Origin: Candidatus Xenobia bacterium
GTDB lineage: Bacteria; Vulcanimicrobiota; Xenobia; Xenobiales; QWHO01
Direction: 5' to 3'
DNA: 64,000 nucleotides
Assembly: GCA_045863235.1 (NCBI GenBank)
Contig: BTUM01000019.1
Span: 18,691-82,690 of the forward strand
This document shows positions 38 to 47,912 of this stretch, in pieces (the first letter of the stretch is position 1; every line of letters starts with the position of its first letter). The translations under genes and the position numbers were made by a program. Below the pieces are notes generated by a model that worked only from the letters and a program-made list of their open reading frames with translations, searched no databases and was not told where the DNA came from.

Positions 38-2089
38 TTATTCGGCCGCCGCGGCAGCCGCCTTGGCCTGAGCGATGACGCCCTCGGCCACCGTGGGCGG
101 GGCCTCCTCGTAGTGGCTGAACTTCATGTTGAATTCGCCGCGACCCTGAGTCATGGAGCGCAGGTCGATCGAGTAGCGCAGCATCTCCGATGCCGGAACG
201 TTGGCCTTGACCATCTGCAACCCGCGACCGATGGGCTCCATGCCGAGAATACGCCCCCGCTTGGAGTTCAAATCGCCCATGATGTCGCCCATGAAGCTCT
301 CAGGAATGATGACCTCCACCTCCGTGATGGGCTCGAGCAACACGGGGTTCGCTTTGAGAGCCCCTTCCTTGAACGCCTTGGCGCCCGCGATCTGGAAGGC
401 CATGTCGGAGGAGTCGACGTCGTGGTAGCTCCCGTCATACAGGGTGACGCTCATATCCACCACCGGATAACCAGCCAGGAAGCCGTCCTTCATGGCATTC
501 TGGACGCCCTTGTCGACCGATGGGCGGAAGTTCCCCGGAATCACGCCGCCGACGATCTTGTCGATGAATTCGTAACCCTCGCCGCGAGCTTTGGGAGCGA
601 GCTCGAGCCAGACATCAGCGAACTGGCCACGTCCGCCGGTCTGCTTCTTGTGGCGGCCCTGAATCTTGACCGTGCCACGGATGGTCTCCTTGTAGGAGAC
701 CTTGGGATGCTCGAGCTCGACGTCTACGCCCGCCCGCTTGAGGCGGTTGACGCAGATGTCGATCTGCACATCACCCACGCCCTTGAGCAGCGTCTGACGA
801 ATCGAGTCGTCGCGCTCGACCTGCAGGGTGGGGTCCTCGGCCAGGATGTCGGCCAGCTTGCTGGAGAGCTTGTCCTCGTCTGCCTTGGACTTGGGATGGA
901 TGGCCTGCACGAAGTACGGCTTGGCGAACTTGATGGACGGAATGACAACCTTCTTGTCCTTGGTACAGAGAGTGTCGCCGGTCCGGGTTCCTTCCAACTT
1001 GGCTACCAGGCAGATGTCCCCGGCCGCAGCCTCTTCCAGGGGCTCCTGCTTCTTGCCGCGCAGAGTGAAGATGTTGGCCACCTTCTCGGAGCGCTCTTTG
1101 GTGGAGTTGTAGTATTCCCCGTTGGGCTTCAAGGTTCCCGAGAAAACTTTCATGTAGCTCAGCTTGCCCAGATACTGATCGGAGGTGGTCTTGAAGACCA
1201 GACCCGAGAAGGGCCCGGCGGGGTCGATCTTGGGGTCGGATTTACCTTCCAGCGGGTTGGGAACGTAGCGCAGGATGGCGTTCAGCAAAGGAGCCACGCC
1301 TCGAATATGGATAGCCGAGCCGCACAGCACGGGGACGATCTGGCCCGACTGGATGCGGCGCAACAGGCCGTCGCGCATCTCCTCGTCGCTCAGCTCCATG
1401 GTCTCGAGGTACTTTTCCATCAGCTCTTCCGTGGCCTCGGCCGCTTCCTCGGCCAGCTTTTCACGGTAGGTCTGGATGCGCTCATTCATATCGCCCGGGA
1501 TGGGAATCTCCTGAGGCTTGCCCTTGTCGTCGAACTTGTAGGCCTTCTGAGTGACCAGGTTGACCACCCCGGAGAAAGTGTCGGCGGTACCGATGGGCAG
1601 CTCGATGGGGACCAGACGGCTGCCCGAAAGTTTCTCGCTGCAGTCATCCAGGCAGCGGTAGAAGTCGGCGTTCTCCTTGTCCATCTTGTTGAAGAACATG
1701 ATGCGCGGCATTCCAAGCAGCTCGGCCTGGCCCCACACTTTCTCCAGGCCAACCTCGACCCCGGCCACGGCAGAGGCCAGCAGCACCAGGCCTTCGACCA
1801 CTCGCAGCGAGGCGGTGATCTCATACTGGAAGTCAAAAAAGCCCGGCAGGTCGAGCACGTTGATCTTATGGCCCTCCCACTCGACCGGCGCCAGGGCGGC
1901 GTAGATGGTCATCCGCCGGCTGACTTCCTCGGGATCGAAGTCGAGCAGGCTGTTGCCATCATCCACTTTGTGAAAGCGATCAGCCCCACCCGTGAGGTAA
2001 AGGATGGAGTCGGCCAGCGTGGTCTTTCCCGAGGCCTGGTGACCATAGAGTCCTACGTTGCGAATCTGTTCTGTGGAATACTTCTTCAC
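38..2089 (-). CDS. Elongation factor G family GTPase paralog (divergent, likely non-canonical)
   Basis: 683 aa. G1 motif is GHQASGKTT and switch I is RRMTIY. The G3 motif reads VLDLPGFFDF where canonical EF-G has IDTPGHVDF. Domains II-V follow. GTG start at 2087-2089 preceded by GAGGGAGGG. Confidence 0.8.
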   Translation of the reverse strand: MKKYSTEQIRNVGLYGHQASGKTTLADSILYLTGGADRFHKVDDGNSLLDFDPEEVSRRMTIYAALAPVEWEGHKINVLDLPGFFDFQYEITASLRVVEGLVLLASAVAGVEVGLEKVWGQAELLGMPRIMFFNKMDKENADFYRCLDDCSEKLSGSRLVPIELPIGTADTFSGVVNLVTQKAYKFDDKGKPQEIPIPGDMNERIQTYREKLAEEAAEATEELMEKYLETMELSDEEMRDGLLRRIQSGQIVPVLCGSAIHIRGVAPLLNAILRYVPNPLEGKSDPKIDPAGPFSGLVFKTTSDQYLGKLSYMKVFSGTLKPNGEYYNSTKERSEKVANIFTLRGKKQEPLEEAAAGDICLVAKLEGTRTGDTLCTKDKKVVIPSIKFAKPYFVQAIHPKSKADEDKLSSKLADILAEDPTLQVERDDSIRQTLLKGVGDVQIDICVNRLKRAGVDVELEHPKVSYKETIRGTVKIQGRHKKQTGGRGQFADVWLELAPKARGEGYEFIDKIVGGVIPGNFRPSVDKGVQNAMKDGFLAGYPVVDMSVTLYDGSYHDVDSSDMAFQIAGAKAFKEGALKANPVLLEPITEVEVIIPESFMGDIMGDLNSKRGRILGMEPIGRGLQMVKANVPASEMLRYSIDLRSMTQGRGEFNMKFSHYEEAPPTVAEGVIAQAKAAAAAAE

Positions 2090-2259: not shown

Positions 2260-2643
2260 TCAATCGAGCAGGGCCACGACCTCGATCTCGAGGCGAGCTC
2301 CCCGCGGCAGGCCGGCCACAGCCACCGTGGAGCGAGCCGGGGGCGGAACCGGCAGGTACTCTCCGTAGACCCGGTTGACCTCCGCGAAATCGTCCATCGT
2401 GACAAGGAAGATCACGGTCTTGACCACGCCCTCCAGAGAGCTTCCAGCCGCACCCAACACGGCCTTCAGATTCTCCATCACACGACGGGTCTGAGCCTCG
2501 AGGTCGCCCTCCACGAGCTGGCCGGTGGCCGGGTCGAGGGGGATCTGACCCGAACAGAACAGCAGGTTGCCGGCTCGCACGGCCTGCGAGTAAGGGCCAA
2601 TGGCGGCCGGAGCGTGGGGGGTGGAAACGGCGCTGCGGTTCAT
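2260..2643 (-). CDS. RidA/YjgF/TdcF family reactive-intermediate deaminase
   Basis: 127 aa. Carries the ...GPYSQAV..G.LLFCSGQIP... motifs and a C-terminal ...ARSTVAVAGLPRGARLEIE... segment typical of RidA. Confidence 0.85.
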   Translation of the reverse strand: MNRSAVSTPHAPAAIGPYSQAVRAGNLLFCSGQIPLDPATGQLVEGDLEAQTRRVMENLKAVLGAAGSSLEGVVKTVIFLVTMDDFAEVNRVYGEYLPVPPPARSTVAVAGLPRGARLEIEVVALLD

Positions 2644-3455
2644 GATGAGATCATTCCTCCGATCGGTTTTCGTTGGAGGCTCGCCAGGCGGCGGGCCTCC
2701 AACAGGGTGGGCAGGTCATCCACATTGAACGCGCTTTCGGCAAAGGGGGTCTCGATGCCGGCGCAGGCCACTCCACCCAGCACTCGTTTGCCCGCTTGCT
2801 CGGCCCGCCGAATGGTCAACCGGCCGAACAAAAACGCGAGCACCGGGCCCAGGCCCAGGATACGGGCCAGAGCCAGGGGATTCTTGCGCTGGCGCGTCAC
2901 GGCCACCAGGGCCGTTTGGACACGCTCGAGCACGCAAGGGCGGATCAGAAAGAGCCCCGTGCCGCAGAAGGTTCCCTCGGCCAGTCGGGCCCAGGTGTGG
3001 TGGAGCCCCGGATAGGCGCGCTCGGAATGCTCACGGCGCAAGAAACCATACCAAACGTCCACCTCGGGGCGACGGCGACAGCGATCCACAAAATCCGTCA
3101 CCGCTTCCGGCGTGAGAAAGGCCAGGTCGCCAGTCACCGAAAGCACGGGCTGCTCGGGATCGCGGGCCTGGCGCAAGCCGTTGGCGAAGGATTCGAGGAT
3201 GCTGGCCCCGGCCTGCACCACCGCGTCGGCCGCCCCGAACCAGGCCGGGTCAAGCTCCCCGGCCGGGACGGGACTGACCAGCACCACCCGGTCGACCCGC
3301 ACCGAGGCCTTGAGCGCCTGCAGGGGGCGCGCGGCCATGGGAGCCTCGCCGATTCTCACCAGGCCCTTGCCCGCCGGTTCGACCTCGCCCGGGGGCAGGT
3401 GGCCGAATCGACCGCCTGCCAACACCTGAGCGTCCACTCGAGCAGGAAAGCTCAT
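2640..3455 (-). CDS. MobA-like nucleotidyltransferase (NTP_transf_3 family)
   Basis: 271 aa. N-terminal VLAGGRFGHL...GKGLV glycine-rich NTP-binding loop and an internal TGDLAFLTPEAV motif. Overlaps ispE and ridA by 4 nt each. Confidence 0.55.
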   Translation of the reverse strand: MSFPARVDAQVLAGGRFGHLPPGEVEPAGKGLVRIGEAPMAARPLQALKASVRVDRVVLVSPVPAGELDPAWFGAADAVVQAGASILESFANGLRQARDPEQPVLSVTGDLAFLTPEAVTDFVDRCRRRPEVDVWYGFLRREHSERAYPGLHHTWARLAEGTFCGTGLFLIRPCVLERVQTALVAVTRQRKNPLALARILGLGPVLAFLFGRLTIRRAEQAGKRVLGGVACAGIETPFAESAFNVDDLPTLLEARRLASLQRKPIGGMISS

Positions 3456-4312
3456 CGCGGGCCCCGGAATCGAGTGCAGGTCACGCGCCCCAGACCGGCC
3501 AGTCGGGCGGCCACGGCCGCTCCCCCGGAGGTGAGCAGGCCAAAGAGGCAGGAACCGCTGCCCGAGAGCAGCACTCCCTGGCAGCCGGCTTCAAGCATCG
3601 ACTGGCGCAGCTCGGCCAGCCGAGGTTCGAGACGGGTTGCTGGAGGCTCGAGATCGTTGGCCAGGCCGGCCACCAGAGCGGCCAGGTCTCGCTGCTCCAA
3701 CGCCCTGACCACCCGCTCGGCGGCTCCCGGGGCGACCCGGACGGGCTGCTCGTCCCAGGCGCGATAAACTGGTCCGGTGGCCAGAGCGAAGGGCGGCTGC
3801 AGGACCACCACTTCGCAGGCAGGAGGAGCGGGCACCGCCTGCAGCAGGTCCCCCCGGCCCTGACCGCGGGCAGCTCCGCCCCGAATGCCAAAGGCCACGT
3901 CCGCCCCCAGCTCGGCCCCGATGCGCTCGAGCTCAGCGGGGGAATGGCCCAGGGAGAGCAGTTCGTTGGCTCCCACCAGGACGGCAGCAGCATCGGCGCT
4001 TCCACCTCCCAGGCCGGCGCCTGCCGGGATGCGCTTGATCAGGCGCACACTCAGCTCGACCCCCAGTCGATTCAGGGCTCGAACGGCCAGATTCTCCTCG
4101 GGGGGGCCCAGCGAGAGGCCGCCCTCCACCTCGTTGACAACCTCGAGACCCGAGCCAGAGGACAGTTCAACCTCGTCGTACCAATCCAGCCAGGCGAACA
4201 CGGTATCCAACCTGTGATAGCCACCCGGTAACAAACCGAGCACCTCCAGGGCCAGGTTCACCTTGGCCGGCGCCTCGACGGTCAACACGGCCAGGCTACT
4301 CGCCCTCTTCAT
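3452..4312 (-). CDS. ispE: 4-diphosphocytidyl-2-C-methyl-D-erythritol kinase
   Basis: APAKVNLALEVLG N-terminal motif and the GHMP kinase loop PAGAGLGGGSADAAAVL. Start taken at the internal Met (MKRASSL), not the ORF's first M at 4342. Confidence 0.85.
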   Translation of the reverse strand: MKRASSLAVLTVEAPAKVNLALEVLGLLPGGYHRLDTVFAWLDWYDEVELSSGSGLEVVNEVEGGLSLGPPEENLAVRALNRLGVELSVRLIKRIPAGAGLGGGSADAAAVLVGANELLSLGHSPAELERIGAELGADVAFGIRGGAARGQGRGDLLQAVPAPPACEVVVLQPPFALATGPVYRAWDEQPVRVAPGAAERVVRALEQRDLAALVAGLANDLEPPATRLEPRLAELRQSMLEAGCQGVLLSGSGSCLFGLLTSGGAAVAARLAGLGRVTCTRFRGPR

Positions 4313-6275
4313 CCTCGGACTTCGGAGAGGGGGTGATCTCATAGACCAGCGGTGTGTTGGCGACCTGAGAGACTTCGCGGGCCACCGCCAGCACCTGGGC
4401 GTAGTCTTGCACGGGGATCCATGGCTTTTTCACCACCAGCCGACTGTAAAACCAGGCTTCCCGACCCTCCTGGCGCGAGGTGAGCAGGAACGAGACATAG
4501 TCATTGTCCACCTGCACCGAGCCCGGCATGGACAGGATCTTGCTTCCCTCGGGCAACATCAGGTGCACCTGGCTGTCATCGCGGAAGGGATGGTCGAACT
4601 GCAGCGGATGCTCGCGGTCAGCCGGACTGTTCGCCAGAGAGGCGATGCGCTGATCGAGTTGGATGGGGATGCTCACCTGGCGTTTGTTGCCCTCGACCGC
4701 TACGTAATCCGGCACGATCAGCGTCATTCCCAGCGGAAAGCCCGGCCCGGCCGGCTCCTTGTCCGGGAAGTAACGCTCGTGAACCTGGGCCAGAGGGGAA
4801 TAGCTCTGGGCGATGGCTGCGAAGAGCGAGCGCAGAATGGTATCCCGCCGACCCCGGTCGGAGCTCGCCAGGGCGCGCACGGCTTCCCGCAGGAAGGTGG
4901 CCGACTCCCCATACTGCTGCTTGGAGATGGCCAGCTCGGCGCTGCCCTGCTCGTCCACTCTGGCCTCGATCTTCGTCTCGTCGCGATTCACGTCGAAGGC
5001 ATCAACGCTGGCATCGGCCAGACGAGGGCCCTCGGGACCCAGAAAGAGGGCCGCCCGCCCCTGGAAGCCGCCCGGAGGCCCCGAAATCAGCTGACCCGGG
5101 TGGGCCGGGTCGAACCAGAAGGGCTTGCCGCCAACATCGGGCAGATAGAGCAGCACGCGACCCACAGAAGTCGGCTGAGGGAGCAATCGGGCCACCTCTT
5201 CGGTTGGCTCGGTAAAGGCCAGCACAGGCTGGGTTCGGAACCCGGCGAACTCGAGCATGGCCGAGACCAGGATCGAGGTGTCCATGTAAGACAGGACCGG
5301 CTCGTCGATCAAATCACTGACCTTGTTGGGCAGGAACTGCTCGTAAGACAGGTCGACCTGCTTCTTGGAGGCCACGACCCAGTCGAGAATGGCCTGAACC
5401 CGAGCCGTGGGCGTGGCGGCAGTGGGGAGCAAACCCGAGGTGATCATCCCCAGTCGGGGTCCACCCGCCGAGTTCTCCCGCCAACTGGAATAAAACCAAT
5501 CGCCCAGCTCGTTCCAGGATTTGAAGCTGGACAAGTCCACCCGCCTGAGCAAGGATTCCGCCTCGGGCATGGCCGGCTCGGTGCGCAGAGCGGCCTGATC
5601 GCTCACCTGCCAGCGCAACACCTGGCTTTGATCGGCCACGGAGCGGGCCGGCCGCGAGGGCACCAGGCCCGGGGCGGCCCAGTGCACGTCGGTCCCCAGC
5701 GGGCTCTTCACGGTGAAAATCGAGACCAGCAGCGGCTCGGGGTTCTGAACATAGGAGGTGGCCCACCAGGCGTTGCGATAGTGGGGCTTGCGGGTTGTCG
5801 TCAGCTTGTATTCCAACACCGACCCGGGCGCCAGCTTGGGGAACTCGAACTCGAAACGGCGATAATCGCCGTAAACTTTGGATTTAGGCAGCAGAGGTGC
5901 GTCCACCACCGAATCGGGCTCGAGATCGTGCACCACCTGGTCGGGCCCGATGACCCGGGCCTCGTGCAAGGTGACCTCGCCATATCCCTGGCGGTAGACT
6001 CGGACCAGCGTCTGATGCGGCTCAATCCCCTCGCTGGTAAGAATCTTCACGATGTCATATTCGCTGTAGGCCGTGGAAGCGTCGCTCTTGAGCTCGAATC
6101 CGATATCATCGTAGAGAATGATGGCCGCCGCGTCGGGGAACTGCTGAGGGCCCGGAGAATTGACGAAGCGGCTGTCCTTGCGAAGCAGCGTACGCCCGGG
6201 CTGGCCCTGAACCGAGCCGCAAAGACCAACCGAAAAGAGCAGTGCCCCCACTAACCAGACTCGTCCTCTAAGCAT
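4296..6275 (-). CDS. Secreted DUF3857 + transglutaminase-like domain protein
   Basis: 659 aa. Signal peptide MLRGRVWLVGALLFSVGLCGSVQG. N-terminal DUF3857-like region, a transglutaminase-like core and a C-terminal acidic tail. Confidence 0.6.
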   Translation of the reverse strand: MLRGRVWLVGALLFSVGLCGSVQGQPGRTLLRKDSRFVNSPGPQQFPDAAAIILYDDIGFELKSDASTAYSEYDIVKILTSEGIEPHQTLVRVYRQGYGEVTLHEARVIGPDQVVHDLEPDSVVDAPLLPKSKVYGDYRRFEFEFPKLAPGSVLEYKLTTTRKPHYRNAWWATSYVQNPEPLLVSIFTVKSPLGTDVHWAAPGLVPSRPARSVADQSQVLRWQVSDQAALRTEPAMPEAESLLRRVDLSSFKSWNELGDWFYSSWRENSAGGPRLGMITSGLLPTAATPTARVQAILDWVVASKKQVDLSYEQFLPNKVSDLIDEPVLSYMDTSILVSAMLEFAGFRTQPVLAFTEPTEEVARLLPQPTSVGRVLLYLPDVGGKPFWFDPAHPGQLISGPPGGFQGRAALFLGPEGPRLADASVDAFDVNRDETKIEARVDEQGSAELAISKQQYGESATFLREAVRALASSDRGRRDTILRSLFAAIAQSYSPLAQVHERYFPDKEPAGPGFPLGMTLIVPDYVAVEGNKRQVSIPIQLDQRIASLANSPADREHPLQFDHPFRDDSQVHLMLPEGSKILSMPGSVQVDNDYVSFLLTSRQEGREAWFYSRLVVKKPWIPVQDYAQVLAVAREVSQVANTPLVYEITPSPKSEDEEGE

Positions 6276-6319
6276 TCTTGAAAACCGTTCCTCTGCGCCG
6301 GTCGGCGGCCCTGTGTTGC

Positions 6320-7279
6320 TCAGCCGGGGCCCGCGTAATGACAGGCGACCTGATGTCCGCTGGCCTTCTCCACCAGGGCCGGAATCTCTTCTTTACAGAC
6401 CGCGCTGGCCAGCGGGCACCGCCCGACGTAGGGGCACCCGCGACCGGAGCTGCTCCCGGTCAGCAGTTGCATCGGCTCCCCCGAACGCCGGCCGGGGTCG
6501 GGGAGCGGCGCAGCCGCCATCAAGGCCCGGGTGTAGGGATGGAGAGGGGCCGTGCAGACCGCCTCGGCAGGGCCCTGCTCGACCAGCCGCCCGCGATAGA
6601 GGACGGCTACGCGCTGGCTCACCATGCGCACGACGGCCAGATCGTGGGCGATGAACAGCATGGAGAGACGACGCTCCTCCTTGAGGTCAAGCAGCAGGTT
6701 GAGCACCTGGGCCTGCACCGAAACGTCCAGGGCCGAGACTGGCTCGTCGGCCACGATCAACTCGGGCTCCACGGCCAGGGCCCGGGCGATCCCGATGCGC
6801 TGGCGCTGTCCTCCCGAGAACTGATGGGGGTAGCGCTGAGCGTGCTCAGGCCGCAGGCCGACTCGCTCGAGCAGCGCCCGAACCCGGTCGGGAATCTCGG
6901 CCCGCGGAGCCAGTCCGTGCAGCAAGAAGGGCTCGGCCAGAATGGTCTGAATCGAATGGCGGGGATTCAAGCTGCTGAAGGGGTCCTGGAAGATGAACTG
7001 GGCCTTGCGACGGAAGGAGAGCAGGTCGCGCCGGGCCAACAGGTCTTCGCCCTGAAAGTAGAGCTCGCCCGAGGTCGGCTCCAACAGTCGCAGAGCCATC
7101 CGGGCCGTGGTGCTCTTGCCCGATCCCGACTCGCCCACCAGGGCCAGCGTCTCGCCCGGCTCGACCACGAAGCTCACTTGATCGACAGCCCGAACCGGTG
7201 AGCCCCCCCCTCCGAACATCCCGCCCCCGGAGGCAAATGTTCGGGTAAGCCCACGTGCTTCCATCAAGGGACCGCTCAT
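6320..7279 (-). CDS. Oligopeptide/dipeptide-type ABC transporter ATP-binding protein (OppF/DppF-like)
   Basis: Walker [10 protein letters not shown], signature LSGGQRQR, Walker B LIVADEP, and a C-terminal oligopeptide/Cys-containing tail GCPYVGRCP. ATGA start/stop overlap with the upstream ATPase gene. Confidence 0.85.
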   Translation of the reverse strand: MSGPLMEARGLTRTFASGGGMFGGGGSPVRAVDQVSFVVEPGETLALVGESGSGKSTTARMALRLLEPTSGELYFQGEDLLARRDLLSFRRKAQFIFQDPFSSLNPRHSIQTILAEPFLLHGLAPRAEIPDRVRALLERVGLRPEHAQRYPHQFSGGQRQRIGIARALAVEPELIVADEPVSALDVSVQAQVLNLLLDLKEERRLSMLFIAHDLAVVRMVSQRVAVLYRGRLVEQGPAEAVCTAPLHPYTRALMAAAPLPDPGRRSGEPMQLLTGSSSGRGCPYVGRCPLASAVCKEEIPALVEKASGHQVACHYAGPG

Positions 7280-8253
7280 GCCACCTGGTCCGCGAAGAAG
7301 CAAGCGCTGAAATGGCCTGCCTCCAACTCGGCCAGGGCCGGCCGTTGGCTATGGCAGCGGTCTTGAGCCATGGAACAGCGGGGAGCGAAGGGACAGCCGG
7401 CGGGCAGAGCGCGCAGGTCGGGAGGCTGGCCCGGAATGGTTGGCAGACGGCCGGGAGCGCGGTCGAGACGAGGGACAGACGCGATCAGGCCAGCCGTGTA
7501 GGGGTGCCGGGGCTGGCTGAAGAGACGGCCCGTGGCAGCACGCTCGACAACCTGGCCGGCATACATGACGGCCGTCTCGTCCGACTCCTGGGCCACCACT
7601 CCCATGTCGTGAGTGATCAGCAGCACGGCCGAGTCCGACTGACGTCGGATTTCGCGCAACAGGGCCAGAATCTGAGCCTGAATGGTGACGTCCAGGGCCG
7701 TCGTCGGCTCGTCCGCGATCAACACCGCCGGGTCGCAGGCCAGCGCCATGGCGATCACGACCCGTTGCCGCATTCCACCCGAGAACTGGTGAGGATAGTC
7801 GTCCACCCGGAGGGCCGGCTCGGGAATCTGGACCCTGGCCAGCAGCTCGATGGCAGCCTGGCGCAGAGCGGTGCCGCGCAGACCCCGATGCACCGCGAGT
7901 GGCTCGGCCACCTGACGCCCCACCGTCAGCACCGGGTTGAGGGCCGTCAGGGGGTCCTGGAAGATCATCCCCAACCGGTTGCCACGCAGCCGGCGCAACT
8001 CCGACGGGGGGAGCTCGCGAAGATTGCGGCCCTCGAACTCGATGACGCCATCCTCCACCTTCCCGGGGGGAGCGATCAGCCCGAGGATAGACATCGCGCA
8101 AACACTCTTGCCCGATCCCGACTCGCCCACCACCGCTAGCGTTCGACCGGGATAGAGCTCAAAACTGACTCCGTCGACCGCGGTCAGCATCCCCTGCTCG
8201 GTAGCAAACCGCGTGGTCAGGCCCCGCAGGGCCAGCACTGGAGTCTGGCTCAC
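7276..8253 (-). CDS. Oligopeptide/dipeptide-type ABC transporter ATP-binding protein (OppD/DppD-like)
   Basis: Walker A GESGSGKS, signature FSGGMRQR, Walker [13 protein letters not shown]-terminal CPFAPRC. Start set at GTG 8251-8253 ([12 protein letters not shown]), preceded by AGGAGGG. The longer 432-aa ORF N-terminus overlaps the Zn-ribbon gene and is rejected. Confidence 0.8.
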
Positions 8254-8588
8254 TTCCCTCCTGTGACGCTCTTGATGATCTTGTTGACCGGCTTCTTGAC
8301 CGAGTCGGGCACGTGGGGCCAGGCGAAGTAGCCGCCCACCAGCAAGAGGATCAAGATCACCGTCTTGATCAGGGCCGCTCGCTGGCGCTCGGCTGCCAGG
8401 GCCGCCTCGTCGGCCCGCAGCTTGGCCATCTTCTCGGCCGAGGTAATGCTGTTCTGATGGCACTGATCGCTGCAGAACTTCCCCTCGGGCGTGGTGTAGG
8501 TGCACTCCTCGCAGATCGGCTTGAGGCACGATTTGCACTTGGTATCGGTCGGCCGCTCCTGGTGCTTGAGACAATGTGATTGTGCCAT
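8250..8588 (-). CDS. Zinc-ribbon (B-box / zf-HC2-like) single-pass membrane protein
   Basis: 112 aa. Cys/His cluster HCLKH..CKSCLKPICEEC...CSDQCH, then a coiled-coil stretch, then a TM helix ILILLLVGGYFAW and a short tail. TGA stop overlaps the GTG start of the downstream ATPase. Confidence 0.6.
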   Translation of the reverse strand: MAQSHCLKHQERPTDTKCKSCLKPICEECTYTTPEGKFCSDQCHQNSITSAEKMAKLRADEAALAAERQRAALIKTVILILLLVGGYFAWPHVPDSVKKPVNKIIKSVTGGK

Positions 8589-8591
8589 GCT

Positions 8592-10523
8592 TTACTCCAC
8601 CATCGTGATCGAAGTCGCGCCGGGGCCCAACGGGATCCGGCGGTCCACCGTCTCGCGGGTGGCGCTGACGACGACCACCTCGCCCTGCTCGGTAACGGCC
8701 CAGATCTCGTCTCCCTGCAGGGTGGCGGCCGTCAGCTTGCCCCCTACGGTGACCGCTTTTGACAGGCTCAGCTCGACCGGGGAGAGGGGACCGAGAGTGC
8801 CGCTCTCGTTGACCACCCAGATCTTCTGGCCGTCAGGAGGAACGAGAATGGCGAACGGGCGCGTTCCACCCGTGTCGCGGCCCGTCCTGAGCGCCTCGGC
8901 GCAATTTGGCAGGCGGTAGCTCTGAACGTGACCATCCACGGGCAGAGCCACCAGCAGATTGGACTTGTTGGCCGAGAGCGCCAGCGCTCCGGCACCGGCC
9001 AGGGGAACCTTGAGCAATTCCTTGACCACCGGATAAGGCTCCACGCAGACCAGCTCGTTCCCCGTGAGGCTGGAGAGGTAGAGCTTCCGGCCGCTGAGGT
9101 CCGTGCCGCCCTCGAGAGAAGGAGAGGCACCCGGATCGGGCACGGGAGCATCCAGAGCCATCCCCTGGGCGTCCCTGCCCAGGGCCACCAGGCCAACCAT
9201 GGCGTCCTTGCGCTTGAGCGGGCCGTCCTTTTGCTCGGGCAGAGCTTTAGGATCGAGCGAGACGATGGACACCTGGCCCATCTCGGAGTTCAACAGATAG
9301 AGCAGTTGGCCCGAGGGGTCCATGAGCAAGCGCCGGCAACCCGGGTCGATCTTCAATTCGCCCACGATGCGGTTGCTGCGCGTGTTGATCAGCTTGAGGA
9401 AGCCATTCTCTGTGGAGGCAAAGAGCTTCTTCCCGTCCGGGCTGGAGACCACGGCAAGAAACTTGTCCTGCTCGAGAGGGATACGGGTCAAGACGGTCTT
9501 GTCGGCCCGATTGACCACATAAATGGCGTTACCGCAAGCCACGTAGGCGGCAGCTCCTTGCCTGGCAAGGATGGGGGGGTTGAGCAACTGGTTGGAATAC
9601 CATAGCAAGGCGAGCAGGCCCACCACTTCCAGGGCCACCAGGTAGACCGGCTGCTTGAGAAAGGCCCACAATAGATTCTGCCAGGCGCGCGTATAGCTGT
9701 AGCTCCAGCGGGCGAAACGGGCCAGACCAAAGTTGATTCTGCGGACCTCCACCTTCTCTTGCACGGGAGGGTGGAGCACGTCGTTAAGGTTCTTTTTGAG
9801 CTCTTCGAAGGAGAAATAGAGCCCCTTGTCCTCGGCCGACAGACAACGGTTGATGACCTTGGCGAGCTCGGGGCTGACCGGGTCGGACTGCGAGCAACCA
9901 AAGGGACCGGGCTCCTTGCGGGCCAGAAAGAAAAACACTGTCTCCCCGAACTTGCGGATGTCACTTGCGATGACCGAGGCCTGAGCGGAGAACTCGGGCG
10001 CGTCCTCGTCGCCCAGGAAGCGGTCGAGACCGTAGTTGATCAGCTTGAGCTTGCCTTCCGAGTCGACCATGATGTTGGACGGATCGAGGGCGTCGAAGAT
10101 GAACGGTTTGGGGCGATTGTGCAGGTAGTGCAGCGCGTCGCACAGAGCGATGCCCCACTCGAGCACCTGGGGCTCGGGCTGGCCCTTCACGCTCATCTCG
10201 AGCAGGGTCTTCATGGTGATGCCATCGACCCGCTCGAGCACCACATACTGACGGCGCCCTTCGGAGAAATGGTCGAACATCTTGGTCAGGCCTGGATGAT
10301 CGAACTCGCGCAACACCTCCATGGCCTCTTGCAGCTGCCGGGTGCGCTCGGTCACCTGCTCCTCGCTCAAGGAGGGGTGCGGGATCATCTCTTTGAGAGC
10401 GAATTTCTGATCGTCGGAGGTGCGCTTGGCCACATAGACGCCCCCCTTCTCGCCGAAGGTAAGGGTCTTGACGACCACGTAGCGGCCTTCCGCGAGCTCC
10501 TGGCCAGGGAGTAGCTCTTTCAT
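8592..10523 (-). CDS. Ser/Thr protein kinase-like pseudokinase fused to TM segment and C-terminal beta-propeller
   Basis: 643 aa. Kinase fold with Gly loop and FALKE lysine. Catalytic loop reads FDALDPSNIMV where HRDLKPxN is expected. The DFG motif is replaced by NYG. A TM segment (LVALEVVGLLALLWY) is followed by YVTN/PQQ-like propeller repeats. Confidence 0.75.
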   Translation of the reverse strand: MKELLPGQELAEGRYVVVKTLTFGEKGGVYVAKRTSDDQKFALKEMIPHPSLSEEQVTERTRQLQEAMEVLREFDHPGLTKMFDHFSEGRRQYVVLERVDGITMKTLLEMSVKGQPEPQVLEWGIALCDALHYLHNRPKPFIFDALDPSNIMVDSEGKLKLINYGLDRFLGDEDAPEFSAQASVIASDIRKFGETVFFFLARKEPGPFGCSQSDPVSPELAKVINRCLSAEDKGLYFSFEELKKNLNDVLHPPVQEKVEVRRINFGLARFARWSYSYTRAWQNLLWAFLKQPVYLVALEVVGLLALLWYSNQLLNPPILARQGAAAYVACGNAIYVVNRADKTVLTRIPLEQDKFLAVVSSPDGKKLFASTENGFLKLINTRSNRIVGELKIDPGCRRLLMDPSGQLLYLLNSEMGQVSIVSLDPKALPEQKDGPLKRKDAMVGLVALGRDAQGMALDAPVPDPGASPSLEGGTDLSGRKLYLSSLTGNELVCVEPYPVVKELLKVPLAGAGALALSANKSNLLVALPVDGHVQSYRLPNCAEALRTGRDTGGTRPFAILVPPDGQKIWVVNESGTLGPLSPVELSLSKAVTVGGKLTAATLQGDEIWAVTEQGEVVVVSATRETVDRRIPLGPGATSITMVE

Positions 10524-10656
10524 ACCAGGGGAATGTTCTCAATCTCTCATGCCGGATCCTGCCCGTCAAAATGGCTTAAAAACTCGCATAACGGCCCCAG
10601 CTCTTGAATCGGGCTCAAAGCGGGAAACTCCGCCGAGGGTCCGAACTCCGCCCGCC

Positions 10657-21200: not shown

Positions 21201-22999
21201 TCGGTCCCTCCCGGAACTTGCAGAGGACCGGAGGTAGTCGGCTCGCCCTGCCCCGTCACGTCGTGCCATTGCAGTTCGGCCGGGTAACTCGAGGAGGCCT
21301 CGGGGAAGGTCAGCAGACGCACGACCTTCTTTTCGCCCGGCCCCAGGTCGAAGTGGCGAACCAGGCTTGGCGGAGCGCCTTGCGGCTTGCGAAAGGGGGT
21401 TTCATAAACCTTGCCGTCGATGAGAAACGAGCCGGCGGCGGGTCCGTTCAGAGGCAGAAAATAGAGACCCACCCGGACCGGGAAGGGGCGCGGATTGATC
21501 AGTGTCGTCTCCAGCCGATAAAACACCCCGAAATTGCCGGTGTTGGGCAACCCGGTTTCGAAGTCGATCAGCCAGGGATCTTCTCCGAAGCGCACCCCGA
21601 CCGGGGCTCCCCCGGTGCGAAACTCGAGCTCTTCTTCGAAATATGGCTGGGCAAAGACGCCGTGGGGGTGAATCTTGAAAGGGTTGAAGGGGGCGCCCAG
21701 GTGGGGCAACTTCTTACCGTCGTTGAAGCTGGGGGCCAGCTCGGTGCGCACTTCGACCTCCAGCGACTCGCCTTCCAGAATGCGGAGGTTGGCAAAGCCG
21801 GTCACCAGAGCCTGGGTGCCAACCTCATGGGCAGCCAGCTCCAGCTTCGTCCGCGGCGGCATGGTGAGCACGTAACCAGCGCCGTCCCCCTCTTGCTCGA
21901 GAAATCGCGTGGCCGAGGTGTGCCCTACCAGAACCTCGTTCCGACTCGGACCAGCGTACAGCGTGTTGACCAGCACCTTGACTGCCTGGTCGTTGGGGTT
22001 CTCCAGATTGACCCACAGGTTGCGCTTGCCTTTGGAGATGTTTTTATGGCTGTACATCAGCCGGCTGGGCTCTTTCTGGCTGAACTTGTATTGCAGCAGG
22101 ACCCCATCCACGTCAACGAGTTCGGGGCGATTGGAGACCAACAGCAAGTTGGCCTCGACCGGCTCGACGTCCAGGCTGCTGACCACAACGGGCAGGCTCC
22201 TGGCGACAGGATAATAATCCTCGCTGCCTTCGATCTTGATAGGCACGGTCAGTCGCATCATCTGGCCGCGCGGGACGGAAGGGAGCTCGCTCAAATCCCC
22301 CCCCACGCTCATCACACAGCCCGGACGCACCCGGGCCTGCACATAGGCTTCCCGCAAGACCCCTTCGGCCACCACCGCGCCCGGGGCTGGATTGCCCACC
22401 ACCTGGACGTTGACCACCTCGGGCAAGGTTCCGGCCCAGTCCTTGACGTGGACGAAGAGATAGGCCTGACCCTGGCCTCGACGCACCTTCAAGCGGGTCT
22501 TGCCCACCCGCGATCCGGTCAGGGTCAAGAGCCCGGTCTCATCGACCGCAGCCTGGACCACCCCGTTGGCGTCCTCCACCTCGATGGGCCCTTCGGCCAG
22601 GCCGGTCACCTCGATCGTGCGCGCCTCGCCAACGGGCATAACCACTCGCCCGGGAGAAAGTCGCACCAACCCATCGGCGACCAGCTCGTGCAGGTTGTTG
22701 GCCCAGCGCAGAGCCAGCTTGAGGGGGTCGCTCTGGTTGGCCGCGGCCATGCTCCTGGTGACCTCGACGATCAGCACCCCGCCCCAGAGAATGGTGGCGC
22801 CATTCTTACTCTTGACGACCTTGATGCCTTCGGGGTCGGCCCCTCGCTCGAGTTGCGCTTCGATGCGCCGGGACACGGCTTCGGCCTGCTCGGCGCTTTC
22901 CAGTCGCATCACGACTCGATCGCCCAGAGTGACTTCCTGGGCCAGACCAGGCAAAGCCAGGGCCAGGAAAAAGACCATAACCAGGACCCGAACGCTCAC
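21191..22999 (-). CDS. Secreted hypothetical protein (602 aa) embedded in lipid A cluster
   Basis: Signal peptide MSVRVLVMVFFLALALPGLAQE. No recognisable enzymatic motifs. Beta-rich composition. Confidence 0.55.
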   Translation of the reverse strand: MSVRVLVMVFFLALALPGLAQEVTLGDRVVMRLESAEQAEAVSRRIEAQLERGADPEGIKVVKSKNGATILWGGVLIVEVTRSMAAANQSDPLKLALRWANNLHELVADGLVRLSPGRVVMPVGEARTIEVTGLAEGPIEVEDANGVVQAAVDETGLLTLTGSRVGKTRLKVRRGQGQAYLFVHVKDWAGTLPEVVNVQVVGNPAPGAVVAEGVLREAYVQARVRPGCVMSVGGDLSELPSVPRGQMMRLTVPIKIEGSEDYYPVARSLPVVVSSLDVEPVEANLLLVSNRPELVDVDGVLLQYKFSQKEPSRLMYSHKNISKGKRNLWVNLENPNDQAVKVLVNTLYAGPSRNEVLVGHTSATRFLEQEGDGAGYVLTMPPRTKLELAAHEVGTQALVTGFANLRILEGESLEVEVRTELAPSFNDGKKLPHLGAPFNPFKIHPHGVFAQPYFEEELEFRTGGAPVGVRFGEDPWLIDFETGLPNTGNFGVFYRLETTLINPRPFPVRVGLYFLPLNGPAAGSFLIDGKVYETPFRKPQGAPPSLVRHFDLGPGEKKVVRLLTFPEASSSYPAELQWHDVTGQGEPTTSGPLQVPGGTEWK

Positions 23000-24875: not shown

Positions 24876-24879
24876 CCTC

Positions 24880-26304
24880 CTAGGGCGATTCGGGCCTGGC
24901 CTTGGTCTTGATAGCGACCATCGCGTAGTCAGTCAGATCGACACAGCCACGATTCTCAACGTAGGTGCCGATCACAATGTCGATCTTCTGCTTCTTGGCC
25001 ACTTCGCCGATGTCGCCCTTGAGGTCCGCCACCATCTTGTCGAAAAGCTCGTTACGCTGTGTCTGGAGCTTGTCACGCTGCTCCTCGAGCACCTTGATCT
25101 TCTCCCTGGTGGCTGCCGAGAGTCCCTCTCGGGCATTGGCCTGCACGGCCTTCTTCAGCTCTTCTTGCTGCTTCTCAATGCGGGCCTTCAGCTCTTCCGA
25201 CTTTGTCTTGAGCCGGGCCACGGCCACACCCTGCTCGGCTTCCATCTTCTGGCGAGCGGCAGCCGCTTCGGCCTCCATCTTGGAGCGCAGCTCATCTTGC
25301 TTCTTGGCGATCATCGCCTTGATCTCCGGTGTCAAGGTGGGCTGCTTGGGGCGAGGGGCCGGGGGAGGGGCCCCCGCGCTGGCAGGCAGAGCCCCGATCT
25401 GGCCCTCGACCTCGCGATTGACTTTGTCGATGGCGGCTTTGGTTTCGGCCGCCTGGCGGGCCTCGGAATCGGCCCGGAAGGTCTTGAAGCTGCCCTCGAG
25501 CTCGGCACGCTTGGCGTCCTTGAGCCGCTCTTCCTCGTCCGAGATGGCCTCGAGCTGGGCCTGCAGGTCGGCCTGCTCGGCCTCGTCCTTGGCCACCTGA
25601 ACTTTCAGCTGAAGGTTCAGCTTCTCTTGCTGATGGGTCTTCATGATCTCGTCTTCGTACGCGGCGATCTCCGAGTCGATGCGGGCTCGCTCGGCCTCGC
25701 GCTGCTCGCGGTGCACTTTCTCGACCTCGAGCTTGATGGCTTGAACCTTGCGCTCGCGCAGGAGCAAGAGGTTCTTGCGCTGCTCGCCGAGAGGCGCCGG
25801 CATGTTGACTGGCTCGGCCGGCGCGGCCGCTTCAGGAGCGTTCTTCTTGATGTAGGCTTCGAGCTCTTTCTGCATCTCGGCCGAGCCCTTGGCTGCCTCA
25901 GCATCGAGCCGGGCCTTCATCTGATCGGAGAGCCCTGCCATCTCGGCCGCGATGGCCGCCTGCTCGGCCTCCATCTCGGACTGCGCTCTCATGAGCTCTT
26001 TCTTGTACTTCTCCTGGGCGGCTCTCAGAATGTCATCGCGGTCCTGCATAGGCGCGAACTCGATCTCTTGCTTGAGCCCGGCCAGTTGCTCGTCGAGTTG
26101 GGTCAAGCGCTCGTAGTCAGGATGAGCCTTGAGCAGGTTGGAATAGTCCACCACGCCCAGCGTGCCGCCCAGGGCCTCACGGACCGCAGCCTGCTGATCT
26201 TGAGCCCCCACCGGAGTCGCCAGAAAGGCGCCCGAGGCCAGGACCGAAACCAGCGCCAATCCACTCCCCCAGCGCAACCATGCGGATCGCAAAGTGTTGT
26301 GCAT
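24880..26304 (-). CDS. Extended coiled-coil OmpH/Skp-like protein
   Basis: 474 aa. Signal peptide. OmpH-like N-terminus (LGVVDYSNLLKAHPDY) and C-terminus (IDIVIGTYVENRG). The roughly 350-aa middle is Glu/Ala/Lys/Gln-rich coiled coil. Confidence 0.6.
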   Translation of the reverse strand: MHNTLRSAWLRWGSGLALVSVLASGAFLATPVGAQDQQAAVREALGGTLGVVDYSNLLKAHPDYERLTQLDEQLAGLKQEIEFAPMQDRDDILRAAQEKYKKELMRAQSEMEAEQAAIAAEMAGLSDQMKARLDAEAAKGSAEMQKELEAYIKKNAPEAAAPAEPVNMPAPLGEQRKNLLLLRERKVQAIKLEVEKVHREQREAERARIDSEIAAYEDEIMKTHQQEKLNLQLKVQVAKDEAEQADLQAQLEAISDEEERLKDAKRAELEGSFKTFRADSEARQAAETKAAIDKVNREVEGQIGALPASAGAPPPAPRPKQPTLTPEIKAMIAKKQDELRSKMEAEAAAARQKMEAEQGVAVARLKTKSEELKARIEKQQEELKKAVQANAREGLSAATREKIKVLEEQRDKLQTQRNELFDKMVADLKGDIGEVAKKQKIDIVIGTYVENRGCVDLTDYAMVAIKTKARPESP

Positions 26305-26317
26305 GACCTTGCCCTCC

Positions 26318-31381: not shown

Positions 31382-32755
31382 TTACATCACTGCTAGCAGG
31401 CGATAGAGCTCGGTGGCCGCCCGGATCCCCCCGAAGAAGTGACGCAACTCGAACTTCTCGTCGGGCGAGTGAATGCCGTCATCGGGGTTGCCCAGGCCCA
31501 ACAGCAGGGTATCCACCCCCAGCACACGACGAAAGTCGGAGACAATGGGAATCGCGCCTCCGTGCCGACTGAAGAGCGGTTCCACCCCAAAACCGGCTCG
31601 GACCGCCTGACGAGCGGCCTCGAAGAGCGACTCATGCCGACCTTCGCGGCGCAAGAGGTAGGGATGCCCGGTGTCGCCCGGCACGAACTCGAGCTCGGCC
31701 CAGGCCGGACACTGCCCGACGAACCACTTGCGCAGGCACTCCATGAGATGGGCCGGCTCCTGGTCGGCCACCAGCCGGGCACTGAACTTGGCACTGGCAG
31801 TCGCGGGCACGATGGTCTTGCTGCCCTCGCCCTGGTAGCCCCCGGTGATGCCATTGCACTCCAGGGTGGGACGAAACCAGCGCCGCTCATTGGTGGTAAA
31901 GCCGTGCTCCCCATGCATGTGGGCCCCCAGCCAGCTCTGGTAGGCGTCCTCATCAAAGGGAAGATTGAAGAGCGACTCGCGCTCCCATTCCTCGGCCTCC
32001 AGAACGCCATCGTAGAAACCCGGGACGGTCACGCGATTGCGGTCGTCGTGCAGAGCGGCGACCATGGCTGCCAGCGTATGAATGGCGTTGGGCAGAGTCC
32101 CTCCGTAGACGCCCGAATGCACATCTCGGTGGGCCACCCGCAGGTGCACCTCGAACACCACAATCCCGCGCAGACTGTAGTGAATCGTAGGAATCCCCTT
32201 GATGGATGTGCTGGTGTCGGACACCACCGCCAACTCGGGAGAGAGCTCTCCCTTCAGTCGCTCGAGCAACTCAACCAGATGCGGGCTGCCAATCTCCTCC
32301 TCCCCTTCGATCAGGAAGGTCAGGTTGACCGGCAATCCGCCCGTCGTCTTCAACAGCGTCTCGACAGCACAAACGTGCGCAAAGAACTGGCCCTTGTTGT
32401 CACAGGCTCCCCTGGCGTAGATCCGATCGCTCTCGACCCGGGGTTGAAAAGGAGGGGAGGTCCACAGCTCGAGCTCATCGGCAGGCTGCACGTCGTAGTG
32501 CCCATACACGAGCACTCGCGGCCTGCCCTCCACGACCGGGCCGTGAGCCACCACGGCCGGATGCCCGGGGGTCTCCTCCAGGCGAGCATTCAGGCCCAGG
32601 CCTCGCAAGCGCTGCTCCACCCAGCGAGCACAGCGCAGCAAATCGGCTTTGCGCTCGGACTGAGTGGAAACGGAAGGGATGGCCAGGAGCTCCTTGAGGC
32701 CTTCCAAGAACGACTCTCGATGCTGGTCGAGGTAAGCAGAAATGGCGTCGGACAT
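31382..32755 (-). CDS. M20 family dipeptidase/peptidase
   Basis: ELLAIPSVS, HYDVQP and GACDNKG motifs plus a dimerisation domain. 457 aa. Confidence 0.85.
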   Translation of the reverse strand: MSDAISAYLDQHRESFLEGLKELLAIPSVSTQSERKADLLRCARWVEQRLRGLGLNARLEETPGHPAVVAHGPVVEGRPRVLVYGHYDVQPADELELWTSPPFQPRVESDRIYARGACDNKGQFFAHVCAVETLLKTTGGLPVNLTFLIEGEEEIGSPHLVELLERLKGELSPELAVVSDTSTSIKGIPTIHYSLRGIVVFEVHLRVAHRDVHSGVYGGTLPNAIHTLAAMVAALHDDRNRVTVPGFYDGVLEAEEWERESLFNLPFDEDAYQSWLGAHMHGEHGFTTNERRWFRPTLECNGITGGYQGEGSKTIVPATASAKFSARLVADQEPAHLMECLRKWFVGQCPAWAELEFVPGDTGHPYLLRREGRHESLFEAARQAVRAGFGVEPLFSRHGGAIPIVSDFRRVLGVDTLLLGLGNPDDGIHSPDEKFELRHFFGGIRAATELYRLLAVM

Positions 32756-36948: not shown

Positions 36949-37674
36949 GTGATCGATATCGAGCGCGCAAGCAAGTCCTATCAAGGACGCGAGGCGCTGC
37001 ATCCTATCTCCCTCACGGTCCCGGCCGAGCGGAGCCTGGCCTTGATCGGGCCCAGTGGCTGCGGCAAGAGCACCCTGATGCGACTGGTGGTAGGGCTGAT
37101 CCGCCCCGACAGTGGGCAGATCAGCGTGGACGGCATCCCCATGACTCCGAGCACAGCCCGGGAGTTACGTCTGCGGATGGGCTACGTGATTCAGGACGGG
37201 GGGCTCTTTCCCCATCTCACCGTGGCTCACAACGTCACCCTGATGGCCCGCCAGTTACGCTGGGAGAAGGCGCGGATTCAGGAGCGACTGAGCCATCTGG
37301 CAGAACTTGTGCAGCTGCCCCCCGACCTGCTCGGACGCTACCCCGCCCAGTTGAGCGGCGGCCAACGCCAGCGGGTGGGCATCATGCGAGCCCTGATGCT
37401 CGATCCGAAGGTGATTTTGCTGGACGAGCCGATGGGGGCTCTCGACCCCATCGTGCGCAGCCATCTGCAAGAGGACCTCAAGCGCATCTTCCGGGACCTC
37501 AAGAAGACCGTTTTGATGGTGACACACGACATGGGCGAGGCCGCTTACCTGGGCGACGAGATCGCCCTGATGCGCGACGGTGCGATCGTCCAAAAAGGCC
37601 CCCTGGACGACCTGCGCCAGCGTCCCGCTGACGCCTTCGTCAGCGACTTCCTCAAGGCCCAGAGGGTGCAGTGA
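36949..37674 (+). CDS. Osmoprotectant-type ABC transporter ATP-binding protein (OpuCA/ProV-like, short form)
   Basis: Walker A GPSGCGKST, signature LSGGQRQR, Walker B LLDEPMGALD. Confidence 0.85.
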   Translation: MIDIERASKSYQGREALHPISLTVPAERSLALIGPSGCGKSTLMRLVVGLIRPDSGQISVDGIPMTPSTARELRLRMGYVIQDGGLFPHLTVAHNVTLMARQLRWEKARIQERLSHLAELVQLPPDLLGRYPAQLSGGQRQRVGIMRALMLDPKVILLDEPMGALDPIVRSHLQEDLKRIFRDLKKTVLMVTHDMGEAAYLGDEIALMRDGAIVQKGPLDDLRQRPADAFVSDFLKAQRVQ

Positions 37675-45263: not shown

Positions 45264-45416
45264 ACCTTCCCCTCGGGAGAGCTTTCACGGGGCAGGTGGC
45301 CCTGACCCGCTCTCCATTATAGCACAGGTGTCATCCGGCAGGAGAAGCACCGGTTGAAAAGAACTCGTGGCAGATTTTTTCGCCCTTTTCGTGTATGCCT
45401 CAAGGAGAATGATACG

Positions 45417-46712: not shown

Positions 46713-46722
46713 GAGCTAAGTC

Positions 46723-47910: not shown

Positions 47911-47912
47911 GC

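Follow-up and report, generated by a model that had tools for sequence, protein, structure and literature searches.

A 64,000-nucleotide stretch of contig BTUM01000019.1 (GenBank assembly GCA_045863235.1, positions 18,691 to 82,690) from a Candidatus Xenobia bacterium (Eremiobacterota, class Xenobia), which we refer to throughout as the window, carries between its positions 2260 and 10523 a block of eight minus-strand genes that an initial annotation, made from the letters alone, had described as tightly coupled and as a possible undescribed envelope-sensing or envelope-modification module. All eight open reading frames (ORFs) lie where they were first called and have high third-position GC. 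We labelled them by Pfam and NCBIfam profile searches, with Pfam extended to every plausible ORF in the window (57 in all), and these searches uphold the domain assignments made earlier, the one qualification being that the term transglutaminase holds for the fifth gene product at the level of its fold only, as its mature form is free of cysteine. In the direction of transcription the block reads as follows, where the module numbers refer to the separately inherited units described in the next section.

8592-10523, minus strand: pseudokinase (PK) with a single transmembrane segment and a beta-propeller, a membrane protein of 643 aa (Pkinase 65.9 bits vs 31.7; module 4)
8250-8588, minus strand: B-box-like zinc-ribbon single-pass membrane protein (ZnR), 112 aa (zf-B_box E = 0.0015, below the gathering score; module 4)
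7276-8253, minus strand: OppD-like ABC ATPase, 325 aa, orphan (ABC_tran 101 bits and oligo_HPY 76 bits; module 3)
6320-7279, minus strand: OppF-like ABC ATPase, 319 aa, orphan (ABC_tran 111.5 bits and oligo_HPY 55 bits; module 3)
4296-6275, minus strand: Sec-exported DUF3857/transglutaminase-fold/DUF3858-like protein, 659 aa (PF12969 75.4 bits vs 24.6; module 2)
3452-4342, minus strand: IspE, the 4-diphosphocytidyl-2-C-methyl-D-erythritol (CDP-ME) kinase of the methylerythritol phosphate (MEP) pathway (TIGR00154 174.4 bits vs a cutoff of 138.7; module 1)
2640-3455, minus strand: TTHA0179-family cytidylyltransferase-like nucleotidyltransferase (NTase), 271 aa (NTP_transf_3, PF12804, 36.7 bits vs a gathering score of 27; module 1)
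2260-2643, minus strand: RidA, a Rid-family enamine/imine deaminase (TIGR00004 167.6 bits vs 106.25)
10524-10656, no strand: divergent intergenic region between PK and lpxD, the presumed promoter region of the operon

The successive junctions measure +3, -4, -4, +44, -47, -4 and -4 nt, and the DUF3857-IspE overlap shrinks to -17 if IspE starts at Met11. We refined the OppD start to GTG 8253, where it and the ZnR stop share the overlap GTGA downstream of a GGAGGG Shine-Dalgarno sequence, and the OppF start to ATG 7279, which overlaps the OppD stop as ATGA; the RidA start meets the NTase stop in the same way. Public gene calls on contigs encoding an identical PK agree on the lengths of PK (643 aa), ZnR (112 aa) and OppD (325 aa) and on the 4-nt overlap, and they give an LpxD of 310 aa (start at Met37, window 10657) separated from PK by 133 nt, a gap that would be only 25 nt if LpxD started at 10549. 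The eight-gene run is the longest in the window, the next runs comprising 6, 5 and 5 genes. The tight coupling originally claimed for these genes is therefore borne out by ORFs, junctions and independent public gene calls. As expected of an operon, all the genes run in one direction, neighbours overlap or are separated by short gaps, and no terminator interrupts them: terminator-like sites within the block number 6 as compared to 5.0 +/- 2.6 in shuffled sequences, which is no excess, and none falls in an intergenic gap. A scan of the block matched no sigma-70-like site, the PK-lpxD gap included, and no Rfam family.

Gene order in related loci

We located the block genes by tblastn in about 100 related loci, anchored on PK (from a genome collection and look-ups) and on the NTase (from look-ups and a metagenome scan). 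In configuration A, found in L001/L005, L004, L015 and L082-L084, a divergent lpxD is followed by PK, ZnR, OppD, OppF, DUF3857, IspE, NTase and RidA (and EF-G). This full set of eight is limited to the window's own clade, with PK identities of 73-96%. Configuration B (L002/L009, L003, L006, L007, L010 and L085/86) comprises PK, ZnR, a small transmembrane protein, DUF3857, IspE and NTase with no OppD or OppF, belongs to Candidatus Xenobium and its relatives (43-44% PK identity), and is preceded by clade-specific genes that are not in the window; L011 resembles it, although no ZnR gene is detectable there. The small protein has a single transmembrane segment, is 68-73 aa long, bears the motif 'LANKQGAT..DI', lies between ZnR (or PK) and DUF3857 in the lineages that lack OppD and OppF, and has no counterpart in the window. 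Its positions are as follows.

L002, 12389-12604: small transmembrane protein
L003, 12409-12615: small transmembrane protein
L011, 12195-12416: small transmembrane protein
L085, 6874-7086: small transmembrane protein

Configuration C (L079, L080, L089 and L091) has neither PK nor ZnR, and its divergent lpxD-like gene is followed directly by OppD, OppF, DUF3857, IspE, NTase and RidA. A deeper lineage with a GC content of 49% (L106/L110) carries, after gap-pgk, an SBP_bac_5 gene followed by OppD, OppF, DUF3857, IspE, NTase and then EF-G, with no RidA and no permease. PK occurs without other block genes in L013 and L014, and IspE-NTase occurs alone in L077, L078, L081 and some 47 metagenome loci, assigned where named to Vulcanimicrobiaceae, Elarobacter or Eremiobacterota, with NTases 35-43% identical to that of the window.

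Across these loci the most constant element is the kinase-nucleotidyltransferase pair. Wherever enough upstream sequence was available for tblastn, the gene immediately before the NTase was ispE, which held for 57 of 57 loci across the phylum; in all eight annotated loci the two genes overlap as called, by either 4 or 13 nt. This pair of ispE and its overlapping NTase is the oldest unit of the block and has been retained together throughout Eremiobacterota. In class Xenobia, DUF3857 has been added directly before ispE; it occupies this position in every Xenobia-type locus and only in those, and DUF3857 genes outside Xenobia have unrelated neighbours with no link to OppDF or ispE. In several deep lineages the OppD/OppF pair precedes DUF3857 and has lpxD as its neighbour, and in other lineages the PK and ZnR pair, in which ZnR directly follows PK in every locus of configurations A and B, joins or replaces it. 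Because the four modules are separately inherited, the block is best described as a nest of modules of different age, as opposed to one conserved eight-gene unit: distant relatives carry subsets, and none has the same set in the same order. The synteny check suggested with the initial annotation shows that some stretches of the gene order persist well outside the circle of close relatives, and the core is kept while the flanking genes differ between configurations A and B. The remark that the gene combination is unusual likewise finds support.

We considered whether OppD and OppF might be a recent insertion in the window's clade and rejected this, since an orthologous OppDF-DUF3857-IspE-NTase string is present in the PK-less loci L079, L080, L089, L091 and L106, with RidA included in all except L106. 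OppD orthologues there (L079, L089, L091 and L106) are 46-54% identical to the window protein and OppF orthologues reach 51-56% identity in configuration C, so that the pair overall scores 46-56%, compared with 41% for the OppD-OppF cross-match.

RidA adjoins the NTase in configurations A and C, lies 3-9 kb away or is absent in B and is absent from Eremiobacteria-type loci; it is a facultative operon tail. The gene beyond it in the window is the following.

38-2089, minus strand: EF-G paralogue, 683 aa, with all EF-G domains, 170 nt downstream of RidA

In most Xenobia-type loci this paralogue (52-62% identity) follows the block, sometimes beyond 3-9 kb of inserted genes, and it and RidA are syntenic passengers. 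A second Rid-family gene (Ribonuc_L-PSP, 60610-61005, plus strand), 29% identical to the RidA of the block, lies in the window beside acyl-CoA dehydrogenase genes.

The encoded proteins

By BLASTP the IspE of the block is 33% identical to E. coli IspE. In the alignment APAKVNL, which holds the Lys10 equivalent, faces SPAKLNL, GADVAF with the Asp141 equivalent faces GADVPV, and PAGAGLGGGSADAA faces PMGGGLGGGSSNAA, so that the equivalents of Lys10 and Asp141, which we take to be the catalytic residues, are present together with the GHMP phosphate-binding loop. The partner kinases of L077, L081, L079 and L002 also pass TIGR00154, with 164.8, 158.8, 155.6 and 174.2 bits, respectively. We predict that the block IspE is a bona fide, ordinary housekeeping kinase of the MEP pathway.

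The structure closest to its NTase partner is PDB 2DPW, TTHA0179 of Thermus thermophilus (E = 3.8e-21, 32% identity), with IspD as the second-best PDB sequence match (2xwl, E = 6e-4). An AlphaFold2 model of high confidence (predicted local distance difference test score, pLDDT, of 95) gives the same ranking by fold, with TM-scores of 0.74/0.86 to 2DPW followed by IspD, KdsB, TarI and GlmU at about 0.55. LAGG, Lys30, Asp110, HTWA, GTFCGxG, ARKNP and NVD are invariant in the family, whose NTP-binding half is of the GT-A type, with LAGG...K plus a D-x-P metal motif. Full-length IspD models fail on the window protein (TIGR00453 16 bits vs 181.3, and no PF01128 match). Eremiobacteria-type members score 27.9-34.2 bits with PF01128 (gathering score 27), over profile positions ~12-119 of 221 only, and 35.1 bits with TIGR00453. 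Across the family, alignment to IspD models is limited to profile positions ~2-119 and TIGR00453 scores range from 16 to 35 bits vs 181.3, and the C-terminal, substrate-side half matches neither IspD nor KdsB models. We set aside a plain IspD or KdsB on these grounds, as only the NTP-binding half matches and the full-length models fail. Literature searches on TTHA0179 and its neighbours, on isoprenoid and MEP metabolism in Eremiobacterota and on ispE-purR-yabJ found nothing usable on function.

The DUF3857 protein has an AlphaFold2 model with a pLDDT of 81, and its sole strong fold match in the PDB is 3KD4, BDI_1141 (TM-scores 0.61/0.76 over 606 columns). Its single cysteine, C19, sits in the signal peptide and the mature protein is cysteine-free; among seven orthologues, all of which have a signal peptide, no cysteine is conserved, and Pfam did not detect Transglut_core (PF01841) in the protein. 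Because the mature form contains neither a cysteine nor a Cys-His-Asp triad, it is not an active transglutaminase or cysteine protease, and the missing cysteine rules out either role. Its sequence characterizes it as a predicted exported, non-catalytic protein of transglutaminase fold. The orthologue in the deep lineage L106 scores 92.5 bits with PF12969, and our literature search on DUF3857 returned nothing usable on function.

As read from their translations, neither ATPase has lost a catalytic motif: Walker A, signature, Walker B and H-loop are all intact, OppD having GESGSGKS (Walker A), FSGGMRQR (signature) and ITHD (H-loop). Their top NCBIfam matches fall short of the cutoffs: OppD reaches 366.9 bits with the OppD model (cutoff 575) and OppF 346 bits with a dipeptide ABC ATPase model (cutoff 408). 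The locus supplies the two ATPases of an Opp/Dpp-type importer without the permease and binding protein that such a system requires. That no ABC permease or binding protein accompanies them, as had been stated for the block, holds for the whole 64-kb window, in which Pfam found no Opp permease or binding-protein gene among the 57 ORFs and tblastn with E. coli OppA, OppB and OppC gave no matches. The sole BPD_transp_1 domain in the window belongs to an OpuA-type fused binding-protein/permease (37671-39161) that has its own ATPase. Partner permeases immediately outside the block in relatives had been named as an outcome that would speak against the proposal; we looked for them and found no OppB or OppC within +/-10 kb in any of the 17 loci, out of 101 related ones, that contain OppD/F, and tblastn with E. 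coli OppB and OppC gave zero matches in the window plus these 101 loci (1.13 Mb). An OppA-like gene (SBP_bac_5) was found only in L106 (3467-5113), directly upstream of OppD, and no permease accompanies it there. The window also encodes peptidases of families S46 (dipeptidyl-peptidase type, 40030-42096), M42 (52887-53945) and M20 (31382-32755), which suggest a peptide-based metabolism and would fit a genuine peptide-uptake role of OppD/OppF.

In PK, the Pkinase match covers residues 15-174 only, a hydrophobic segment read from the sequence spans residues ~286-310, and propeller-type matches fall at 327-428. When PK is aligned to PKA and Aurora, Ala147 occupies the position of the catalytic Asp of the HRD motif, Asp149 that of the catalytic-loop Lys and Asn163 that of the DFG Asp. 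The residues of an active Hanks-type Ser/Thr kinase (HRD Asp, catalytic-loop Lys/Asn and DFG Asp) are not in place, and PK is classed as a pseudokinase because the HRD and DFG aspartates are replaced. Among the 22 family members Asn163, Lys44 (beta3) and Glu66 (alphaC) are invariant, the catalytic-Asp column holds Ala or Val, and Asp146 is not conserved. With the beta3 Lys and alphaC Glu retained, the protein may still bind nucleotide. Only 21 full-length homologues were present in the protein collection, and the named ones belong to Candidatus Xenobium, Eremiobacterota (Vulcanimicrobiota) or UBP9. Among L013, L014, L008, L009 and L015 are PK-bearing contigs that submitters labelled Armatimonadetes, Bacillota or Burkholderiales; these labels are probably binning or labelling errors, and L014 (GC 42%) may represent a genuinely distant lineage.

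The ZnR pattern C6-x2-H9-x8-C-x2-C-x4-C-x2-C-x9/10-C-x3-C, with eight Cys/His ligands, is conserved in eight orthologues along with a transmembrane segment and an 'AWPxLP' motif. We also considered a ZAS-type anti-sigma factor and set this aside, as the annotated neighbourhoods contain no sigma-factor gene and the ligand pattern is B-box-like.

The adjoining outer-membrane cluster and other neighbours

On its lpxD side the block adjoins an outer-membrane biogenesis supercluster of unusual composition (window 10549-31373). It begins with the divergent LpxD and continues on the minus strand with a CPBP protease, a gene that we could not name, a metallophosphoesterase that is possibly LpxH/LpxG-like, a PEMT-like protein and two LpxB-type genes, then LpxA, a Gfo/Idh/MocA oxidoreductase, FabZ and LpxC, and further on a second hexapeptide transferase (LpxD-like), three Skp/OmpH genes, BamA and a BamB-like gene. 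ORFs in two stretches of ~1.5 kb each (21270-22995 and 24876-26317) had no Pfam match. The sole cultured representative of the phylum has a diderm envelope with a lipopolysaccharide outer membrane (PMC9758169).

Elsewhere in the window, a tight plus-strand run (45354-51555) encodes SecD, SecF, a GAF-adenylate/guanylate cyclase, a canonical Ser/Thr kinase (Pkinase E = 1.5e-46) and a T2SS-F-type protein, several of its junctions being overlaps or gaps of <=10 nt. An 821-aa protein on the minus strand (53942-56407) combines a response-regulator receiver with HD_5 (HD-GYP-type), TPR repeats and BTAD.

Competing readings and known systems

Taken together, we lean, by a modest degree, towards reading the block as a co-expressed mosaic supra-operon that borders the bamA-skp-lpx outer-membrane cluster, and not as one dedicated machine. 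A promoter in the divergent gap between lpxD and PK would drive all eight genes, the 4-nt overlaps would couple their translation, and the products would act in different places. IspE would yield CDP-ME 2-phosphate for isoprenoid and lipid-carrier supply, and the NTase, given its cytidylyltransferase-like NTP-binding half, might catalyze the same or an allied activation step, while RidA would detoxify enamines. The OppD/OppF pair would be shared and constitutively expressed, powering putative Opp-type permeases encoded elsewhere, as suggested by the OppA-like neighbour in L106, the retained oligo_HPY domain and the S46, M42 and M20 peptidases. From domain content and topology, the DUF3857 protein would be a periplasmic binding or scaffold protein and the PK/ZnR pair a non-catalytic transmembrane sensor or scaffold.

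Several observations weigh against this reading. Of the 36 remaining pairs of same-strand neighbours in the window, 23 (64%) likewise have gaps of <=44 nt. Since close packing is usual in this genome, spacing is a weak operon criterion, and it is the sole basis on which it is plausible that the block is one polycistronic unit. In configuration C, OppF overlaps DUF3857 by 4 nt (L079 and L080), and the OppDF-DUF3857-lpxD neighbourhood persists though DUF3857 identity falls to 25-35%. This persistence exceeds what passengers need and hints at a functional tie for which the mosaic has no explanation.

That all eight products form one undescribed machine for envelope sensing or modification, with PK as sensor, ZnR as adaptor, OppDF as motor, the DUF3857 protein as periplasmic effector and IspE/NTase supplying precursor, we consider unlikely. 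The block does diverge from lpxD beside the lipid A/BamA/Skp cluster in configurations A and C, its genes are tightly coupled, no permease lies near OppDF in the 17 loci, and three of the products are exported or membrane proteins. However, the modules are separable, configuration C lacking PK/ZnR, B lacking OppDF, the rest of the phylum lacking all three of DUF3857, OppDF and PK, and PK standing alone in L013 and L014; moreover, IspE is an ordinary MEP kinase, the DUF3857 protein has no catalytic cysteine, and the synteny extends no less to RidA and the EF-G paralogue, whose functions are plainly unrelated. Of the envelope module proposed in the initial annotation, the location next to the lipid A/BamA/Skp cluster stands and the unity of the eight genes does not, since the modules recombine; sensing or modification of the envelope is shown by nothing in the data and stays speculation. 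At the opposite extreme, the arrangement might lack functional meaning and simply go back to an ancestral gene order kept in a compact, tightly packed genome, in keeping with the equally tight spacing of 64% of other same-strand pairs and with the synteny shared by the unrelated RidA and EF-G paralogue. We regard this as most improbable as a sole account because the core persists through rearrangement of its flanks and deep divergence (25-35% identity for DUF3857 and 35-47% for the NTase), and without selection it is hard to see how IspE and the NTase would stay adjacent, with their start/stop overlaps conserved, in 57 of 57 loci.

Other alternatives concern parts of the block. The core could comprise two consecutive MEP steps if the NTase stood in for IspD in Eremiobacterota, or were itself a highly diverged IspD, and fed CDP-ME to IspE, a tentative proposal that we hold possible, though doubtful, and that is compatible with the mosaic. 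It draws on the invariable IspE-NTase adjacency with its 4- or 13-nt overlaps, on the N-terminal NTP-binding half that scores as IspD or CTP_transf_3 in Eremiobacteria-type members, and on the rank of IspD, KdsB and TarI cytidylyltransferases as the nearest folds after 2DPW and of IspD as the second PDB sequence match. Yet full-length IspD models fail badly (TIGR00453 16-35 bits vs 181.3), the 'HDAAR'-type motif, which we take to be the IspD signature, is replaced by a MobA-like G/S-D-L-P motif, and the TM-score to IspD is only ~0.55. Thermus thermophilus, the source of TTHA0179, also has a canonical IspD, so the TTHA0179 family is not IspD by descent. A more far-reaching version is improbable in our estimation: here the IspE partner would be a new cytidylyltransferase class, which either replaces IspD in this diderm phylum or makes a new CDP-activated precursor, with DUF3857, OppDF and PK/ZnR as the dedicated export, energising and sensing partners of an envelope-lipid pathway that has not been described before and is tied to the lipid A cluster.

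For the ATPases, a non-canonical ABC system partnered by the DUF3857 protein (and by PK and ZnR where present), with mechanotransmission like that of FtsEX or LolCDE, would account for zero OppB/OppC in 1.13 Mb as opposed to OppD/F in 17 loci, and for the long-lived pairing in which OppF and DUF3857 overlap by 4 nt in configuration C. We judge it very unlikely: the configuration C operon holds no membrane protein, the oligo_HPY C-terminal domain typical of Opp/Dpp importers is retained, an OppA-type binding protein stands beside OppD in L106, configuration B keeps DUF3857 without any ATPase, and we know of no ABC ATPase that works without an ABC transmembrane domain.

Under the mosaic supra-operon that we prefer, an apparently exotic eight-gene 'machine' resolves by synteny into reusable modules around a housekeeping gene. 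Several of these modules merit attention of their own. The NTase locked to ispE could be a missing or alternative MEP-pathway enzyme, and if it were an IspD analogue, pathway annotation in Eremiobacterota would change and a drug-target pathway would gain a new enzyme class. OppD and OppF have long persisted in evolution with no permease genes at their side, next to lpxD and the gene for a transglutaminase-fold protein that is catalytically dead, and the PK-propeller and ZnR form a lineage-restricted membrane pair in a barely studied diderm phylum.

Individual components of the block have recognizable counterparts. OppD and OppF resemble those of E. coli oppABCDF in having ABC_tran and oligo_HPY domains and in being adjacent and overlapping, but they lack OppB and OppC, have an OppA-like partner in L106 only and do not reach the NCBIfam equivalog cutoffs. 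The DUF3857 protein shares a three-part fold over ~600 residues with BDI_1141 of Parabacteroides distasonis (3KD4; DUF3857/transglutaminase-like/DUF3858, a 'putative protease'), but at 11% sequence identity and without a Cys-His-Asp triad. The NTase is nearest by sequence and fold to TTHA0179 (2DPW), whose function is unassigned, the IspD, KdsB and TarI cytidylyltransferases being more distant. PK has the layout of the M. tuberculosis receptor Ser/Thr kinase PknD, with a cytoplasmic kinase fold, one transmembrane segment and an extracytoplasmic propeller; unlike PknD it lacks the HRD and DFG Asp, it scores only 24.7 bits vs 839 with the PknD model, and it is paired with ZnR in configurations A and B.

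At the level of gene order, ispE lies just upstream of the purR-yabJ(ridA)-spoVG-glmU-prs region in Bacillus. The purR-yabJ-spoVG-glmU order is documented for staphylococci (PMC8949118). Like the block, this Firmicutes region brings a RidA gene and a nucleotidyltransferase gene into one conserved housekeeping neighbourhood, but the order differs, purR and spoVG are absent from the block, and GlmU carries an acetyltransferase LbH domain whereas the NTase of the block is a single-domain protein of the TTHA0179 type. E. coli K-12 lolB-ispE-prs couples ispE to an upstream exported outer-membrane-biogenesis gene, lolB and ispE overlapping by 1 nt with prs next, and there too a housekeeping nucleotide-metabolism gene follows ispE. 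It differs in that LolB is unrelated to DUF3857, prs takes the place of NTase/RidA, there are no ATPases and no pseudokinase, and it does not lie beside an lpx cluster. By analogy, the logic of the block would match that of lolB-ispE-prs, in which essential isoprenoid supply is co-expressed with envelope proteins without a shared pathway, and the block is a lineage-specific variant of this known arrangement, a housekeeping isoprenoid gene within an envelope operon, that includes several uncharacterised families.

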